Part shown: positions 6,857-61,448 of the stretch, in pieces
Layout: each line of letters opens with the position of its first letter
Position numbering within the stretch: the stretch's first letter is position 1
Assembly: GCA_001785445.1 (NCBI GenBank)
Contig: MFTV01000010.1
Location: 101,566-165,565 of the forward strand
Reading direction: 5' to 3'
Source: Candidatus Nomurabacteria bacterium RIFCSPHIGHO2_02_40_30
GTDB lineage: Bacteria > Patescibacteriota > Minisyncoccia > Phycocordibacterales > UBA9973
Length of the DNA stretch: 64,000 nucleotides
Notes under the pieces: generated by a model
What the model saw: only the letters and a program-made list of their open reading frames with translations
Told to the model about the DNA's origin: nothing
Databases searched by the model: none
Position numbers and translations under genes: made by a program

Positions 6857-7837
6857 ATGTCCAATTTGCATTCAAATTCAATTTTCTGGATTGATACCGA
6901 TAAAATAAAACCAAACCCTTACCAGCCAAGGCGGGACTTTGATGAAGCAACCTTGCGAGACTTGGCTGACTCTATAAAACAATACGGAGTTCTTCAACCA
7001 CTCATAGTTTCTCGCAGCGAAGTCGAAAAAGATGGCGGAGGACTGCAGACCCTGTATGAACTTATTGCGGGAGAAAGAAGACTGCGAGCCGCGAAACTTG
7101 CCGGTGTTTCGCAAATACCGGTTATCATCCGAGAAGGCGATACTGCTTTAATGAAGCTGGAATTGGCAATTATTGAAAACTTACAAAGAGAAGATCTCAA
7201 TGTAGTCGACCGCGCCCGCGCCTTTTTTCGCTTGGTTAGTGAATTTAAGTTTACCCACAACGAAGTTGCCAAGAAAATGGGCCGAAGCAGGGAATATGTT
7301 TCTAACACCCTTAGAATTTTAACCTTACCAGAAGAAATTATAAATGGTCTTTCTGAAGGAAAAATTACTGAAGGACATACAAGGCCAATACTGATGCTCG
7401 CAGACCATCCGCAGGAGCAATTGGTGCTTTTCAAAGAAATTGTCTACAAGAAAATCACGGTGCGCGAAGCAGAGAGACTTGCCAGGAAAATAGCTTTTGA
7501 CCGTGTGCGCAAGAAAGAATTTATGCCTGACCCTGAAATAACCGAACTTGAAGAAGAATTTCAAGAAAAGCTGGGAACTCGAGTGCATATAGACAGGAAA
7601 GAACTAGGCGGTCAGATTAAAATAGATTTTTTCTCTACCAACGACTTGCGAGAAATTTTAGATTTGATACAAAAATCAAATACAGAGAAGAGACCTGAAG
7701 CAATGATGGAAAACCATATTGCCAAAAGTGAAGTAAAAATAGAAAACCAAGAAAAAGCACCTATTGACGACAGAAGTAAAGAAGAGAAAACACAAGATGA
7801 GGCTGACCTTTATAATATTTCTAACTTTAGTGTTTAA
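6857..7837 (+). CDS. parB: ParB/Spo0J-family chromosome partitioning protein with an acidic C-terminal tail
   Basis: ParB box 'LIAGERRLRAAKLAG' and C-terminal dimerisation pattern 'KLGTRVHIDRKELGGQIKIDFFSTNDLREILDLI'. Extended -10 'TGCTAAAAT' upstream. No parA adjacent. Confidence 0.8.
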   Translation: MSNLHSNSIFWIDTDKIKPNPYQPRRDFDEATLRDLADSIKQYGVLQPLIVSRSEVEKDGGGLQTLYELIAGERRLRAAKLAGVSQIPVIIREGDTALMKLELAIIENLQREDLNVVDRARAFFRLVSEFKFTHNEVAKKMGRSREYVSNTLRILTLPEEIINGLSEGKITEGHTRPILMLADHPQEQLVLFKEIVYKKITVREAERLARKIAFDRVRKKEFMPDPEITELEEEFQEKLGTRVHIDRKELGGQIKIDFFSTNDLREILDLIQKSNTEKRPEAMMENHIAKSEVKIENQEKAPIDDRSKEEKTQDEADLYNISNFSV

Positions 7838-41943: not shown

Positions 41944-43674
41944 ATGATAAGAAAAATGTTCAAAAAAAAGAATAGTGACAAACACTTTTTCGTGGAGCCC
42001 GACGAGATTTTTCTTGACTCAAAAAATTTGCAAAATTTTGACCGTCAGCAATTCGAGGGACGAATAGAAAAATCAATACCTAAAAAGAACATTTTATTTC
42101 TTGGGATTTTATTCCTGCTTTTTTCTGTAACATTTGGCAGCCGTCTGATATATCTGCAAATCCAAAAAGGGGAAGCGTACTTGAAAAGAAGCGAAAATAA
42201 TATTTTAGACAAAGTTATTATCTTTACCGAGAGAGGAATAATCTATGACAGAAATAATGTAAAGCTGGCTTGGAACAGTAGAAATTCGGACGTTGGACGT
42301 CTGAATTCCGGACGTCCAACGTCCGAATCTGAAAACATGCCTATTCGCACATACATGTCACCCGGATTTTCTCATGTATTGGGTTACGTTAGTTACCCAG
42401 CCAAAGACAAGGACGGCAACTATTGGCAAACTGAATTTATGGGTAAAGACGGCTTAGAAAAAGAATACAACGACAAAATCAAAGGAGAAAATGGCTCAAA
42501 AATAATAGAAATAAATGCGTTAAAAGAAATAAATTCCGAAAATATCATAAACATTCCAAAACGAGGGAATAACTTGGTTACAAGTATTGACTCAAAAATT
42601 CAGAAAGAATTGTTTACTTTAATTAAAAATCTGGCAGAAAATAATAACTTTACCGGTGGAGCTGGGATAATAATGGATGTCAGAAATGGAGAAATACTGA
42701 CTTCTACCAGCTTCCCAGAATATAATTCCGAAACTTTATCTCTTGGAGAAGATATATCAGCGATCAATAAGTATATAAACGATAAAAGAAAATTCTTTAT
42801 GGATAGAACTGTTTCCGGACTTTATACTCCAGGCTCGATCGTTAAGCCATTTTTCGCGCTTGGAGCTCTAACTGAAGGCATTATTGACCAATATAAAAAA
42901 ATTCTTTCGACTGGTTCCATCTCAATCCCAAACCCTTATTTTAAAGACCAAAAGACTGTTTTCAAAGACTGGAGAGTAAACGGCTGGACAGATATGAGGG
43001 AGGCTTTGGCTGTTTCTTCTGATGTTTACTTTTACTCTATTGGCGGGGGCTACGGCGACCAAAGAGGCCTTGGTATAACCAATATTGGCAAGTATGCCAG
43101 CCTCTTCGGCATTGGAGAAGCAACTGGGATTGATTTGCCGGACGAAAAAAAGGGCACCATCCCGTCTCCGCAATGGAAAATAGAAAATTTTCAAGGAGAC
43201 CCTTGGCGCATTGGAGACACTTATCATACGGCTATCGGACAATATGGATTCCAAGTTACTCCGGTAGAAATAGTCCGCGCCGTAGCGGCTATAGCAAGTT
43301 ATGGCAAAATGTTAACTCCGCATTTTATACTCAATGACAAAGAAAAGGAAAATAAAACTTCTACAGTCAACTTAAAAAAAGAATACTTTGACATTGTGCG
43401 TGAAGGAATGAGAAAAGCAGTGACAACGGGCACGGCGACAATACTGAATGTGCCCTATGTGCATGTCGCTGTGAAAACCGGAACAGCAGAGCTCGGAGTG
43501 GCTAAAAATAAAGTGAACTCTTGGGTGATGGGCTTCTTGCCGTACGAAGACCCTAAGTACGCTTTCGTGATTATTATGGAGTCGGGCCCCTCGACCGGCG
43601 GCGCTAATGCGTCTTCTGTCATGCGAGGTCTCTTGGACTGGATGTACCTTAACACACCGGAATATTTCGATTAA
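41944..43674 (+). CDS. Penicillin-binding protein 2 / peptidoglycan D,D-transpeptidase
   Basis: N-terminal TM, dimerisation domain, transpeptidase motifs 'SIVKP' (SxxK) and 'KTGT'. Contains an in-frame GC-rich palindrome at 42284-42328. Confidence 0.8.
   Translation: MIRKMFKKKNSDKHFFVEPDEIFLDSKNLQNFDRQQFEGRIEKSIPKKNILFLGILFLLFSVTFGSRLIYLQIQKGEAYLKRSENNILDKVIIFTERGIIYDRNNVKLAWNSRNSDVGRLNSGRPTSESENMPIRTYMSPGFSHVLGYVSYPAKDKDGNYWQTEFMGKDGLEKEYNDKIKGENGSKIIEINALKEINSENIINIPKRGNNLVTSIDSKIQKELFTLIKNLAENNNFTGGAGIIMDVRNGEILTSTSFPEYNSETLSLGEDISAINKYINDKRKFFMDRTVSGLYTPGSIVKPFFALGALTEGIIDQYKKILSTGSISIPNPYFKDQKTVFKDWRVNGWTDMREALAVSSDVYFYSIGGGYGDQRGLGITNIGKYASLFGIGEATGIDLPDEKKGTIPSPQWKIENFQGDPWRIGDTYHTAIGQYGFQVTPVEIVRAVAAIASYGKMLTPHFILNDKEKENKTSTVNLKKEYFDIVREGMRKAVTTGTATILNVPYVHVAVKTGTAELGVAKNKVNSWVMGFLPYEDPKYAFVIIMESGPSTGGANASSVMRGLLDWMYLNTPEYFD
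42284..42328. repeat. GC-rich perfect 18-bp inverted repeat inserted in frame within the PBP2 gene
   Basis: Arms attcggacgttggacgtc (42284-42301) and gacgtccaacgtccgaat (42311-42328), 9-nt spacer tgaattccg. Encodes 'RNSDVGRLNSGRPTSE'. Confidence 0.6.
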
Positions 43675-45166: not shown

Positions 45167-45610
45167 ATGCGAGTAATTTTTTTAAAAGATGTGCCGAGAG
45201 TGGGGAGAAAGTACGACATAAAAGAAGTCAATGATGGCTACGCTATGAATTTTTTATTGCCGAGAAAGTTGGCCATGACAGCAACTCCAAAAGCTGTGGC
45301 AGAATTGGAATTAAAGAAGAAAGAAATTGTCATCGAAAGGGAAGTGCAAGAAAACTTGCTTCTTAAAAATCTGGAAGAAATAAAAGATAAAGTCCTTCAC
45401 ATGACTGGCAAAACTGACGAGAAAGGACATTTATTTTCCGGAATCCGCGCTAGAGATATAGTGGAAGCCATGAAGACAGAATATCACGCCGACATAAATG
45501 AAGGCGCCATAAAACTCGAAAAACCAATTAAAGAAATAGGAGAGTTTACTATTCCACTTGAAATCCAAGGCAAAAAATCTTTCTTCAAGCTTGTGGTGGA
45601 GAAAATCTAA
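45167..45610 (+). CDS. rplI: 50S ribosomal protein L9
   Basis: Motif '[32 protein letters not shown]'. Confidence 0.85.
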
Positions 45611-45879
45611 ATAACGTTTACTACTTTTTTTACTAAAGTCTTTCCGTTAAAAGAAGTCTTGCGACGAGAGCCGAATTTGACAGTGCCGTCTTTGAGGGCG
45701 AATAGGGTATGGTCCACGCCTATGCCGACATTGTTGCCAGCCATAATGACTGTGCCACGCTGACGGACGATAACAGAGCCTGCTTGAGCACTTTGGCCAT
45801 CAGTTCGTTTAATACCTAGGTATTTTGGGTTTGAGTCTCTTAAATTTTTGGCCGTTCCGCCGGCTTTTCTATGTGCCAT
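45607..45879 (-). CDS. rpmA: 50S ribosomal protein L27
   Basis: Motif '[24 protein letters not shown]'. Confidence 0.9.
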
Positions 45880-45899
45880 ATATTTGTGTTAAAATAATT

Positions 45900-45927
45900 A
45901 CATAATACATTACGTAATGTATTATGT
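45900..45927. promoter_or_regulatory. Perfect 28-bp palindrome centred on TTACGTAA, in the divergent rpmA / Ada-like promoter region
   Basis: acataatacaTTACGTAAtgtattatgt is its own reverse complement. The same core motif recurs at 61365-61398. Confidence 0.45.
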
Positions 45928-45946
45928 AACCAATATAGACTAATAT

Positions 45947-46339
45947 ATGGAAAAAATCAAGACATTCTTGGAAAGCGACAAGGGTAAAGACATAATGATA
46001 GTTACCATCGTCATTTTGGTGGGCTTAGGCTCATTTGAGCTAGGTAGACTATCTAAAGAAGGAAATGGCTCGAGGGGAGTCAAAATTGAGTATACGGAGG
46101 ACGTAAGTAATCAGCAAGCAGGGAATGTAATTTCAGCCATAGAATCTTCTAGTCTTTTGCAAAATACTGAAGTAGCAAATTCTGCTGGCAAAAACTTTTT
46201 TGCTTCCAACAGGGGAACTAAATATTATTCCATCGGCTGTTCAGCCGGCAAAACTATTAAGCAAGAAAACAGAGTCTACTTTGCAACAAGTGAAGCTGCC
46301 CAAAGGGCAGGGTATGAGCTTAGTAGCTCGTGTAGGTAA
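45947..46339 (+). CDS. Membrane-anchored protein with Ada-like Zn-binding (methylphosphotriester repair N-domain-like) domain
   Basis: C-terminal 'KYYSIGCSAGKTIKQENRVYFATSEAAQRAGYELSSSC' resembles the Ada N-terminal metal-binding domain pattern. One N-terminal TM helix. Confidence 0.45.
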   Translation: MEKIKTFLESDKGKDIMIVTIVILVGLGSFELGRLSKEGNGSRGVKIEYTEDVSNQQAGNVISAIESSSLLQNTEVANSAGKNFFASNRGTKYYSIGCSAGKTIKQENRVYFATSEAAQRAGYELSSSCR

Positions 46340-50139: not shown

Positions 50140-50799
50140 ATGATAAAAATTCAGCCTATTGTAAGGAATATAGTTATGAGTGAGCTCGAAGCCTATGTGG
50201 CATTAACCAACGGCTACATGAATATGAGCAGTTATGCGCACAGAATACGTCCCCTAGTGGAAGAACATGCCAAAAAACAAGTAACCATTACCAGCCTCGT
50301 AGTTTCCTTATCGCGCCTGCGTAAAGAGTTTAAAAAAGAAAAGCCACTTATTCAAGAAGTTGTCATCGCTAATATCACTACCAAGCTGCCGCTGACAGAC
50401 ATTGTGTATGAAAATACTGACAGCATAATTAGCAAACTCGAGTCCTTTCATAAAAAAATTTCTATTTCACGTGAAGATTTTTTCACTACCACTATAAGTA
50501 CCACTGAACTCAATATTATTTGTTCATCGAACATTGCTGGCAAGGTATTAAAACATTTCGGCATCAAGCCAAAGTTCACTGCGCAGAATCTGGCGGCAGT
50601 CGGCATCTCATTCAGTGAAAAACAATTCACTATTCCAAATACACTTTTTTCTTTATATTCCGTCATCGCCCGAGCGCGTATCAACATCATTGAAGTGGTC
50701 TCGACATATACAGAACTAATTTTCATCATCGAAGAAAAAAACTTCAGCCAAACCGTAGCCCTATTTTCCGAACTGCACCGGAAAGTAAACAGAGAATAA
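50140..50799 (+). CDS. Stand-alone ACT-domain protein (aspartokinase regulatory-domain-like), paralog A
   Basis: C-terminal 'PNTLFSLYSVIARARINIIEVVSTYTELIFIIEEKNFSQTVALFSELH' fits the aspartokinase ACT pattern. About 60% identical to the 56572-57237 product. Confidence 0.5.
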   Translation: MIKIQPIVRNIVMSELEAYVALTNGYMNMSSYAHRIRPLVEEHAKKQVTITSLVVSLSRLRKEFKKEKPLIQEVVIANITTKLPLTDIVYENTDSIISKLESFHKKISISREDFFTTTISTTELNIICSSNIAGKVLKHFGIKPKFTAQNLAAVGISFSEKQFTIPNTLFSLYSVIARARINIIEVVSTYTELIFIIEEKNFSQTVALFSELHRKVNRE

Positions 50800-50945
50800 A
50801 ATCTACCATCTCGAACATATGTAAAAGATAGTAGATAGTTGTGAATTTACGCATATGCGTGATTTCACAACAAAAATGTTTAAGTATTACTAATACAATA
50901 GCAACGGCCGTGGTTATTGTGATAATAACAATAATATTAAATTAA

Positions 50946-51740
50946 TTAGACCACTTCCACTATACCGCTGAAAACGGACACGGCGGGGCCGCGCATGATT
51001 ATGTCGCCTTGTTCGTTTTCAGACATATATAATTTTCCGCCCGGTAATTCTATGATGAGTTCTACATCAGCGTTTTTATATTTCCTAGCTGCCGCGTACA
51101 CTGCGCAGGCTCCTGTACCACAGGCAAGAGTCGCCCCGCATCCCCTCTCCCAGACTTTTACTTTAAATTCGTTAGAACTTTTTTGCTCCACAAACTCAAC
51201 ATTTATTTTATTTGGAAAAATTTTATTGTTTTCTATCTTAGGACCCAGTGTAGGTAAGTCATATTTGTCCAAATCTTTTACAAAAGTTATGGCATGTGGG
51301 TTGCCGACAGAAACAAAATTAAAATCGAATCCTTCTAATTTTGTATTTTTATCCGGAAAATCTGTGTGCACAAAAACAGCTTTCCCCATATTTACCGAAA
51401 AAGTATGGTCATCATTATATTTTATTTCTTTTGTACCTGCGCGTGTATCTATTGTAAATTTAGTTTTATTTTTTGAAAAATTGTCTTTCAAAAATTTTGC
51501 TACACAGCGCACACCGTTTCCGCACATCTCGGCTAGTGTTCCATCAGAATTATAATAATTCATAAAGCAGTCCCCTTTTTCTGAAGATTCAACTAAAATA
51601 ACGCCATCACCTCCTATGCCTTTATTTCTGTCACAGAGAAAAATAATTTGCTCTTTTGATAAAACAATTTTCCCATTTATATTATCAATGACTACAAAGT
51701 CGTTCCCCAGTCCATGCATTTTTGTAAAGCCTATATTCAT
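50946..51740 (-). CDS. dapF: Diaminopimelate epimerase
   Basis: Motif 'FTKMHGLGNDFVVID' and two catalytic Cys regions. Confidence 0.85.
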   Translation of the reverse strand: MNIGFTKMHGLGNDFVVIDNINGKIVLSKEQIIFLCDRNKGIGGDGVILVESSEKGDCFMNYYNSDGTLAEMCGNGVRCVAKFLKDNFSKNKTKFTIDTRAGTKEIKYNDDHTFSVNMGKAVFVHTDFPDKNTKLEGFDFNFVSVGNPHAITFVKDLDKYDLPTLGPKIENNKIFPNKINVEFVEQKSSNEFKVKVWERGCGATLACGTGACAVYAAARKYKNADVELIIELPGGKLYMSENEQGDIIMRGPAVSVFSGIVEVV

Positions 51741-57480: not shown

Positions 57481-57891
57481 ATGTTTGATAAAGTCAAAAA
57501 TGACATCTTGGGCAAAGATTATGACCTTTCTATAGCATTTGTTAGTGAAAAAAAATCTAGAGAACTAAATAAAAAATGGAGATATAAAGACAAGGCGACT
57601 AATGTCTTGTCTTTCTCTTTACGTAAAGACACGGGGGAGCTTGTGTTATGCAACGCTGTAATTAAAAAGGAAACAAAAAAGTTCGACAAAACTTTTCCGC
57701 AATTAGTCGGTTTTTTAGTTATCCACGGCATGCTTCATTTGAAAGGTATGCGACATAGTAGTACAATGGAGAGAGCAGAAAAAAAATACTGTAAAAAATA
57801 TGGTAAGAAATATTTCAGTAGGAATAGACGTGGGCTCCGGAACGACGAGAGTCGTAGTGGGAGAGTTCGTAAAAGGAGAAAAAAATCCTAA
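57481..57891 (+). CDS. ybeY: Endoribonuclease YbeY (rRNA maturation factor)
   Basis: Zn motif 'HGMLHLKGMRH'. The basic C-terminal tail overlaps the ftsA start by 92 nt. Confidence 0.7.
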   Translation: MFDKVKNDILGKDYDLSIAFVSEKKSRELNKKWRYKDKATNVLSFSLRKDTGELVLCNAVIKKETKKFDKTFPQLVGFLVIHGMLHLKGMRHSSTMERAEKKYCKKYGKKYFSRNRRGLRNDESRSGRVRKRRKKS

Positions 57892-60254: not shown

Positions 60255-60392
60255 AGGAAGTTTTTGAAACAAGCTTTTGTAGGGGTTTCGAGGCTGGCGA
60301 GCCGAGAACTTCAGAGTTTTTTAAGCTTCAAAAAACTCGTACCGAAAAAAGCTTTGTTTCAAAAACTTCTTTACATAGTGTATACTAAATAT

Positions 60393-61364
60393 ATGACTTA
60401 CGATTTAATTATTATCGGGGGTGGACCGGCCGGCGCGGCGGCGGCAGTTTACGCTGCTCGTAAAAGACTACAGACGCTCTTTATTACCAGCGAGTGGGGC
60501 GGGCAAAGTGTAGTCTCCGAGCAAATTTACAACTGGATTGGCACCACTTCCCTCTCGGGAAATGAATTAGCAGAAAATTTTAAAAAGCATGTATTGGCAA
60601 ATGCCATAGGTACTGAAAACCTGAAAGAGGCTGAAGATTTGGGCTCTACGCTTTTAGTAAAAGAAGGTGAAAAAGTAATTTCTCTCACAAGGACAGTCCT
60701 TGAAAATTCCTTTGAAGTTACAACAGAAAATGGCGAGAAATTTTTAGCTAAGACAATTCTAATAACTAGCGGCAGCGGTAGAAGAAAACTTGAGGCAAAG
60801 AATGCCGACAGACTAGAACATAAAGGACTCACTTACTGCGCCTCTTGCGACGGGCCTCTTTTTACCGGTCAGGATGTCGCGGTAGTGGGCGGCGGGAACG
60901 CTGGGTTTGAAACTGCTGCCCAGCTTCTGGCCTATTGTAAATCCGTAACCCTTCTGCACCGTAGTGAGTCTTTTGATAAAGCTGATGAAATTACCGTTGA
61001 TAAAGTTTTGAAAAACCCAAAAATGAAAGCGGTAAAAAATGTGGAAATTTTGGAAATACAAGGCGATAAATTTGTCGAAGGAATAGTATATAAAGACAGA
61101 GCTACCAGCCAAGAAACAGAATTGAAGGTCTCCGGTATTTTCGTGGAAATCGGGCAAATTCCAAATACTAACTTTGTGAAAGATTTGGTTCCGCTTGACG
61201 AAATCGGACGTATAAAAATAAATCCGTTAAATCAAAAAACTTTAGTCCCCGGCATCTGGGCTGCCGGCGACTGCACTGATGTGCTCTATCATCAAAACAA
61301 CATCGCCGCCGGTGATGCCGTCCGCGCCCTCGAAGATATTTATTTGGCAATTCATACTAAATAG
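60393..61364 (+). CDS. trxB: Thioredoxin reductase-like FAD/NAD(P) oxidoreductase
   Basis: Motif 'YDLIIIGGGPAGAAAAVYAAR', redox 'CASCDG', second Rossmann 'VAVVGGGNAGFETA'. ATG at 60393; the ORF-track start 60264 is a 5' over-extension. Confidence 0.8.
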   Translation: MTYDLIIIGGGPAGAAAAVYAARKRLQTLFITSEWGGQSVVSEQIYNWIGTTSLSGNELAENFKKHVLANAIGTENLKEAEDLGSTLLVKEGEKVISLTRTVLENSFEVTTENGEKFLAKTILITSGSGRRKLEAKNADRLEHKGLTYCASCDGPLFTGQDVAVVGGGNAGFETAAQLLAYCKSVTLLHRSESFDKADEITVDKVLKNPKMKAVKNVEILEIQGDKFVEGIVYKDRATSQETELKVSGIFVEIGQIPNTNFVKDLVPLDEIGRIKINPLNQKTLVPGIWAAGDCTDVLYHQNNIAAGDAVRALEDIYLAIHTK

Positions 61365-61398
61365 TTACGTAATCTATTACGTAATACATTACGTAACC
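61365..61398. promoter_or_regulatory. Tandem array of three TTACGTAA palindromic octamers at 12-bp spacing
   Basis: gTTACGTAAtctaTTACGTAAtacaTTACGTAAcc. Lies directly after the trxB stop and ~25 bp upstream of the -35 of the riboswitch promoter. Confidence 0.45.
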
Positions 61399-61420
61399 AA
61401 ATACTTTTCCACAGATTTAA

Positions 61421-61448
61421 TTGACAGGTTTAGATAAAAGCATAAACT
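61421..61448 (+). promoter_or_regulatory. Putative sigma70 promoter for the cobalamin-riboswitch operon
   Basis: TTGACA at 61421-61426, 16-nt spacer, TAAACT at 61443-61448. Confidence 0.4.

Follow-up and report, generated by a model that had tools for sequence, protein, structure and literature searches.

Two intergenic sites in a 64,000-nucleotide stretch of DNA (the window) from a Candidatus Nomurabacteria bacterium are copies of one element, in which the unit RTTACGTAAY plus two variable bases is repeated three times to build a palindrome of 32-34 bp. Array 1 lies between the divergent rpmA and Ada-like genes, and array 2 follows the stop codon of a trxB-like gene. Arrays of the same design occupy intergenic, often stop-proximal positions in many Patescibacteria and in some Bacteroidales. 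With reserve, a hairpin or cruciform element that marks gene boundaries is favored here over a site for a gene-specific regulator.

Array 2 consists of three exact copies of TTACGTAA (61365-61372, 61377-61384 and 61389-61396) at an exact 12-bp period, in the order TTACGTAA-tcta-TTACGTAA-taca-TTACGTAA-ccaa (61365-61400). A reading of the sequence alone, made before this analysis, had noticed the three phased copies, and they are confirmed, with a true start at 61365, one base from where that reading had put it. Array 1 is also built of three 12-bp steps and reads TTACATAA-taca-TTACGTAA-tgta-TTATGTAA-ccaa (45898-45933); its central unit is an exact TTACGTAA (45910-45917), and its outer units carry mirror-image CG>CA and CG>TG changes. 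The sequence-only reading had described this site as a perfect palindrome of 28 bp (45900-45927), and the palindrome is indeed perfect but 32 bp long. In array 2, the palindrome that includes the flanks (61364-61397) is interrupted by one C/C mismatch, located in the spacers. Both arrays thus hold three TTAYRTAA units with an exact 12-bp period followed by CCAA, and the flanks acaTTACGTAA and GTAACC(AA), which had been claimed for both sites, are correct by sequence. The gene map bears out that both sites are intergenic, and the proposal that they represent a non-random motif and a single kind of element holds, both being three-unit, 12-bp arrays beyond chance expectation. The features of the two sites, together with a related class of arrays discussed below, are collected in Table 1.

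Table 1. Coordinates of the arrays, of the features around them and of the arrays upstream of MarR-type genes. Positions without a locus prefix are those of the window.
Feature	Position	Strand	Remark
Array 1	45898..45929	.	32-bp perfect palindrome, arms of 16 nt, 100% complementary
Array 2	61365..61396	.	with flanks a 34-bp near-perfect palindrome (61364-61397), 95% complementary
CCAA flank	45930..45933; second copy 61397-61400	+	common to both arrays; direct sequence reading
Isolated TTACGTAA	57619..57626	+	within ybeY-like coding region; outside any array
rpmA (ribosomal protein L27)	45607..45879	-	start codon 18 bp from array 1
Ada zinc-binding domain protein gene	45947..46339	+	start codon 17 bp from array 1
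trxB-like FAD-dependent disulfide oxidoreductase gene	60264..61364	+	array 2 at its 3' end
Sigma-70-like promoter TTGACA-16-TAAACT	61421..61448	+	24 bp 3' of array 2; consensus match only
Cobalamin riboswitch RF00174	61437..61581	+	36.6 bits; precedes DUF4430 gene
MarR-type arrays	L062:5825-5856, L099:1203-1234, L085:3663-3694, L051:6516-6547, L064:6175-6206		
MarR-type arrays, further	L068:3146-3177, L020:1016-1047, L070:322-353, L083:2986-3017, L050:6764-6795		
MarR-type arrays, rest	L111:2742-2773, L014:6321-6352, L081:1482-1513		

The counts of the motif in the window exceed expectation. TTACGTAA is present in five copies where 1.06 are expected, a number attained by 1 of 100 shuffles; for TTAYRTAA, 19 copies compare with an expectation of 7.95, and none of 100 shuffles attains 19. 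The two-unit pattern yields four exact matches against an expectation of 0.49 even when two mismatches are allowed. The motif had been said to appear nowhere else in the window, which is contradicted by a fifth exact copy at 57619-57626; this copy probably arose by chance. A total of 444 kb from about 80 related genomes contains a single TTACGTAA, where a Markov model predicts 0.9, and lacks two-unit arrays altogether. An apparent avoidance of single sites (0 against 8.1 expected by base composition) vanished under the Markov expectation (1 against 0.9). The genome-wide frequency check proposed by the sequence-only reading could be approximated only; by that measure, chance would produce the 8-mer rarely, and individual genomes seem to contain few arrays. 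The view that an AT-rich 8-mer came to lie at both sites by chance fits the isolated copy, but it has to contend with exact triple phasing found twice in 64 kb, where about one single copy is expected, with the absence of arrays from 444 kb of related DNA and with dozens of identical designs in other genomes. Window counts, phasing and recurrence elsewhere rule out a chance origin of the arrays, and we give that view practically no credence.

Recurrence was established by a scan for TTAYRTAA-N4 x3 in one GTDB genome per species (185,579 species), which returned at least 120 loci. Among the matches listed, about 41 are exact TTACGTAA triples of 3-5 units, mostly from Patescibacteria (Saccharibacteria, Moraniibacteriota, Nomurabacteria, Daviesbacteria, Doudnabacteria, Peribacteria and Paceibacterota), with some from Bacteroidales, including one on a 3.36-Mb contig, and a parallel TTATATAA class is present in Saccharibacteria and Harrisonbacteria. 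Among the same matches, 147 of 167 units are preceded by A or G (A116/G31/T19/C1) and 148 of 167 are followed by T or C (T104/C44/A18), so the unit is properly RTTACGTAAY plus two nucleotides. Wherever the listed matches contain units beyond the ascertained triple, these are always exactly 12 bp apart. The loci fall into three classes: arrays upstream of MarR-type genes, palindromic arrays of Patescibacteria and Bacteroidales, and unrelated plain direct tandem repeats. The window arrays are members of the second class. The matches listed include at most 4-5 loci per genome, and the window holds two arrays in 64 kb; in 275 kb around the ascertained arrays there are neither further arrays nor single TTACGTAA sites.

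A BLAST search with the arrays gave no match to plasmids and only three weak partial matches to phages, within Bacillus phage dUTPase genes. Other 8-mer palindromes at a 12-bp period were compared in viral contigs only, not in cellular genomes, where TTACGTAA x3 gave one match, TTTCGAAA x3 none and TTAGCTAA x3 one. TAACGTTA x3 occurs in 36 phage contigs (L214-L249) as a coding repeat of four codons (for example GGT AAC GTT ACA, encoding G-N-V-T), and these matches are therefore unrelated to the intergenic arrays.

Palindromic arrays are intergenic in the genomes that bear them, among the matches listed. Arrays of the CG class lie in 27 tandem, 8 convergent and 2 divergent contexts, and 24 gene ends against 10 gene starts fall within 20 bp of an array, again among the matches listed; these counts rest on our own ORF calls and the excesses are modest. 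At two loci on a single Nomurabacteria scaffold (L113, pyrD > array < glycerate kinase, and L116, fmt > array < hpf), the convergent gap consists of essentially the array alone, and at two others (L002 and L105) the array adjoins a canonical terminator. Clustering of neighboring proteins revealed no recurrent family within 2.5 kb of CG-class arrays, a procedure that overlooked the MarR-type class because its units are mostly non-CG, and no functional theme was apparent among 40 genes downstream of arrays.

The surroundings of array 2 allow its position to be assigned. The array begins one base past the trxB stop codon (TAG, 61362-61364) and covers about -57 to -88 relative to the predicted promoter; downstream of the riboswitch lie the DUF4430 gene and a gene for a cobalamin-binding-like surface protein. 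The sequence-only reading had taken the array as a regulatory site upstream of the riboswitch promoter. The closest TrxB relatives are 84% identical, and five independent assemblies representing the species all have array 2 in unaltered form. In strain L125, identity to the window is 99.9% as far as a point about 100 nt upstream of the trxB stop, beyond which the two sequences diverge. L125 carries a two-unit array, AG-TTACGTAA-TGTA-TTACGTAA-CT, immediately 3' of trxB, the next gene being an abhydrolase, and its DUF4430 promoter has no array. Since L125 keeps an array after trxB in front of another downstream gene, array 2 belongs to the 3' end of trxB and the proposed tie to the riboswitch promoter falls; in annotation, an array after trxB should not be assigned to the cobalamin-riboswitch promoter. 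Comparison of L125:11029-11760 with window positions 61365-61400 identifies L125 as a recombinant with the abhydrolase gene inserted right behind the array, so that the break in homology coincides with the array itself.

The array is not conserved at this position in more distant relatives: of 80 related loci (66-82% identity), 79 have a trxB 3' end that can be read, and a TTACGTAA array is absent from all of these ends; many have other hairpins or canonical terminators directly past the stop. In some Nomurabacteria relatives (L171:3950-3989, L172 and L174), a 40-bp perfect palindrome of A and T only, AAAAAGTTATAATATATTATATAATATATTATAACTTTTT, is centered on TTATATAA and starts one base before the end of the trxB stop codon, which is the position of the window array. 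Several families of perfect or near-perfect palindromes of 45-54 bp and higher G+C content were also seen about 300 nt into related Nomurabacteria trxB orthologues (L141:3382-3426, L147:3299-3343, L175:3278-3331, L190:3269-3316 and L204:3291-3339), and a palindrome of this type is found in the window at 42284-42328, in the variable loop of a PBP2-like gene, as an in-frame insert relative to homologues. These coding-region palindromes look like in-frame insertions of the Rickettsia RPE type. A further group of hairpins occupies window positions 50800-50945, the convergent gap between ORFs 50140-50799 (+) and 50946-51740 (-), where three unrelated long hairpins devoid of T-runs fold with -38.8 kcal/mol (z -5.3). 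The third of them (ACAATAGCAACGGCCGTGGTTATTGT) has a relative directly 3' of the trxB stop in L204:4014-4061, and the ACAATAGCAACGGCCGTGGTTATTGT type constitutes a second family of repeated hairpins at gene ends.

Just past the right end of the window, behind the gene for the cobalamin-binding protein, a defense-type cluster (L121:14338-18755) encodes a HinfI-like restriction enzyme with an N6/N4 methyltransferase, LexA, a ThsB-like TIR protein and a caspase-like peptidase. GATC is strongly under-represented both in the window (observed/expected 0.42) and in relatives (0.55, L127-L206), a deficit that suggests restriction pressure on GATC in the lineage.

The center of array 1 is the midpoint of the 67-bp gap between rpmA and the Ada-like gene, and the array overlaps the only possible promoter space of this divergent pair. 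In strain L209, whose Ada-like protein is 93% identical, unit 1 is TTACGTAA and unit 3 is TTATGTAA. The outer-unit changes of the window (CG>CA, CG>TG) restore a perfect palindrome and create a TATTAT -10-like hexamer on each strand, where a promoter scan matches it to ATTACA or GTTACA at a distance of 17 bp. The rpmA/Ada-like gaps of relatives at 75% protein identity contain no array, and a look-up of the exact L27 protein returned the same gene context only. The 45898 array is likewise lineage-specific.

The palindromic symmetry of the arrays extends beyond the motif. Of 42 CG-class arrays among the matches listed, 18 have a second spacer that is the reverse complement of the first, where 3.5 would be expected and none of 5000 permutations reaches that number; direct spacer identity is found in 11 of the 42 against 2.75 expected, and 13 of 29 perfect arrays go on pairing for at least 3 bp within flanks that are unrelated. 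The stems predicted for the arrays measure 14-17 bp, with folding energies of -11.6 to -20.3 kcal/mol and z scores of -3.6 to -6; RNA folds of -11.6 kcal/mol (z -3.6) are predicted for array 2 and of -13.3 and -16.4 kcal/mol for array 1. Only 3-4 of the 14-16 pairs of a stem are G-C, and no clear U-tract follows, T making up 41% of the next 12 nt in the CG class and 48% in the TA class, so these stems are not canonical intrinsic terminators. A terminator scan of the window called neither site, and Rfam returned only noise-level matches to miRNA hairpins at site 1. Imperfect arrays show no sense-strand G.U bias (10 G/T against 11 A/C mismatches, a result that is negative or underpowered), and this lack of RNA-strand asymmetry would place the symmetry at the DNA level.

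Convergent positions, symmetry that reaches beyond the motif and the want of orthologous conservation, of a coherent regulon and of single sites leave a gene-specific regulator site poorly supported. We tentatively infer instead that a hairpin or cruciform is the functional form. In many Patescibacteria and some Bacteroidales, the element would mark gene boundaries rather than particular genes, and its action would most likely be structural, a transcribed or supercoil-extruded array folding into an A/U-rich stem of 14-17 bp with a few central C-G pairs. Array 2 would then most likely be a stem-loop at the end or boundary of the trxB transcript, terminator-like, mRNA-protecting or insulating, and not an operator of the riboswitch promoter, while array 1 would be the same element filling a divergent gap, where it necessarily overlaps both promoters and may have been partly co-opted. 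Several observations sit uneasily with a boundary hairpin. A pure hairpin does not explain why the 8-mer, its R/Y flanks and the 12-bp period recur across phyla; there is no clear U-tract and no G.U bias, and some arrays stand beside canonical terminators; a role at 3' ends is impossible for site 1, between divergent starts; the preponderance of convergent over divergent contexts (8 against 2) and of stops over starts is modest and depends on our own ORF calls; and template-switch mutation within palindromes could yield mirror symmetry without selection.

This last process also has a part in a different explanation, in which the arrays are neutral or selfish DNA, either a self-complementary minisatellite or a remnant or target of a mobile element. 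They would be tolerated at gene ends and in convergent gaps, where insertions do least harm, and homogenized by slippage and palindrome-driven template switching, and the -10-like hexamers of site 1 would be incidental. The sporadic, lineage-specific presence of the arrays agrees with this, as do cases in which one genome has identical, identically flanked copies (L113/L116, L031/L036 and the CCAA at both window sites), the difference in unit number between strains (3 against 2), the homology break with gene insertion or deletion exactly at the L125 array, the enrichment of direct as well as inverted spacer identity, the homogeneity of units within an array and the want of a functional theme in downstream genes. 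No transposase or recombinase recurs nearby, however, the copy number is low, unlike that of REP or MITE families, and a core shared across phyla would require a recognizing enzyme or strong convergence. Moreover, two arrays in the same genome frequently have different spacers, so that simple copy-and-paste is not the rule, and the identity of array 2 in five independent assemblies indicates that it is not hypervariable. We consider a neutral or selfish origin unlikely.

A second class of loci bears on the alternative that the arrays are bound by a protein. Among the matches listed, TTAYRTAA x3 lies 0-131 bp upstream of an orthologous MarR-type gene at 13 loci, 11 in Bacteroidota and 2 in Alphaproteobacteria (Table 1). 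Twelve of the 13 genes encode fusions of about 317 aa of a MarR winged helix-turn-helix (wHTH) domain to a GNAT acetyltransferase, and one (L081, Rhizobium) encodes a stand-alone MarR protein of 183 aa. These arrays are probably the autoregulatory operator of an uncharacterized regulator family, for which they offer a testable candidate; we found no paper on this association. Searches with tblastn and hmmsearch detected no homologue of the MarR-type protein in the window or at any Patescibacteria locus, and no wHTH was found among the window proteins scanned. The sequence-only reading had considered the site of a dimeric regulator plausible. The 13 loci supply a wHTH precedent for TTAYRTAA units at 12 bp, but orthologous conservation and regulon coherence do not bear the suggestion out.

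In its general form, this alternative holds that the arrays bind a sequence-specific dimeric protein encoded elsewhere, such as a MarR-type winged-helix or RHH/antitoxin-like protein, with adjacent dimers on successive palindromes at 12-bp spacing. At site 1, both divergent promoters would be repressed; at site 2, the protein would either target the promoter 24 bp downstream or stop transcription that runs on from trxB. Strict retention of RTTACGTAAY and of the 12-bp period across phyla and the direct precedent of the MarR-type loci argue for such binding and are the reasons for which it is kept, and it gains further from the overlap of site 1 with the sole promoter space, the location of site 2 upstream of a predicted promoter (about -57 to -88), the DNA-level symmetry without RNA-strand asymmetry and the 12-bp center-to-center spacing known from the YefM and RelB operators. 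Against it, arrays stand between convergent genes without promoter space, are not conserved at orthologous positions and precede heterogeneous genes; no regulator is encoded near any Patescibacteria array or among the window proteins scanned, and no single sites are seen in the 275 kb around arrays. Binding requires neither mirror-image spacers nor a palindrome that reaches past the units into the flanks, and MarR-type operators have neither feature; the L125 array stays after trxB despite a different downstream gene. We rate binding by a dimeric regulator as somewhat unlikely.

A variant would reconcile the conservation of the core across phyla with the non-promoter positions, both of which would be explained if the arrays were sites of an unrecognized sequence-specific DNA-binding or DNA-processing protein of many Patescibacteria and some Bacteroidales that marks gene boundaries. 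Such a protein may be a roadblock terminator or insulator, a centromere or nucleoid anchor, or the recombinase of a novel type of tiny palindromic mobile element; we regard its existence as quite doubtful. Much less probable still are centromere-like or nucleoid-organizing sites, for instance targets of an orphan ParB-family protein. A ParB is encoded in the window, yet no canonical parS with up to 3 mismatches is present; the arrays are palindromic with an ACGT center and seemingly few per genome, and one (L004) lies 83 bp upstream of a parB gene. Nevertheless, their sequence and geometry are unlike those of 16-bp parS and of NBS sites, the window arrays are 39-54 kb from parB, a single parB adjacency in about 50 loci is at chance level, and no clustering is shown. 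Identity with parS itself was rejected, the 16-bp TGTTNCACGTGAAACA-type palindrome being absent from the window and from 1.48 Mb of further loci. The ParB-family gene of the window (6857-7837) has no adjacent parA.

Patescibacteria have small genomes, few known regulators and almost no mapped cis-elements. The arrays provide an easily searchable landmark of gene boundaries across many classes of Patescibacteria and in Bacteroidales. If they end or insulate transcripts, they would help to delimit transcription units in bacteria for which growth in isolation is not possible, and if a protein recognizes them, that protein would represent a new and widely shared DNA-binding specificity. When the literature was searched for TTACGTAA and ATTACGTAAT, the only matches were primer sequences and studies of eukaryotic bZIP proteins, and searches for palindromic repeats of Patescibacteria returned only TIGR-Tas; no paper describing the arrays was found.

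Several known systems resemble the arrays in part. To our knowledge, the bZIP family has no bacterial counterpart. The eukaryotic PAR-bZIP/NFIL3 site RTTAYGTAAY (PMC10941009) has the same 10-bp consensus, a match that we treat as a coincidence of a simple palindrome. TIGR (Tas) guide arrays have box C/D motifs around spacer pairs and an adjacent tas gene (10.64898/2026.09.09.750476); the present arrays have no box C/D motifs and no Nop-domain gene nearby, and this kinship was rejected. An SOS box was likewise rejected: LexA-like motifs of Bacteroidetes are GGA-N5-TCC and CTAA-N5-TTAG (PMC8565304), and the upstream region of lexA in the same organism has the inverted repeat GATAACCT-N10-AGGTTATC instead.

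Like the MarR-type operators, the window arrays have three TTAYRTAA units at an exact 12-bp period. The units of those operators are mostly TTACATAA or TTATATAA, with asymmetric spacers and TAAC-NN-GTTA cores, and do not form long palindromes, whereas the window arrays are perfect or near-perfect palindromes with no such gene nearby. MetJ met-boxes (AGACGTCT) have an 8-bp period, and the operators of the YefM and RelB antitoxins are spaced 12 bp from center to center. The arrays share with these systems the 2-5 short palindromes, the ACGT-type center and fixed phasing, with a 12-bp step of the YefM type. However, MetJ, YefM and RelB operators lie in the promoter of the regulated or autoregulated operon, and the arrays often follow stops or separate convergent genes, and no gene for an RHH protein or antitoxin adjoins them. 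With intrinsic terminators, the arrays have in common a stem-loop right after a stop (site 2), a place at which trxB of relatives has canonical terminators; they differ in an A/U-rich stem, a conserved sequence, the want of a consistent U-tract and one copy in a divergent gap.

The REP and BIME elements of Enterobacteria and Pseudomonas are short extragenic palindromes at 3' ends, in convergent gaps and inside operons. REPs vary from species to species, are present in hundreds of copies and go together with RAYT transposases. Neither the window proteins scanned nor the neighborhoods of arrays yielded a RAYT or Y1 transposase. Unlike REPs, the arrays seem to be few per genome, are built as 12-bp tandems and have a single TTACGTAA core across phyla. 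Like REP and BIME, they are extragenic, capable of forming stem-loops, situated at 3' ends and between convergent genes, independent of gene family, lineage-specific and not conserved at orthologous positions. Except in copy number and in the conserved core built of tandem units, which set them apart, it is REP-type palindromes that the arrays most resemble in their behavior.
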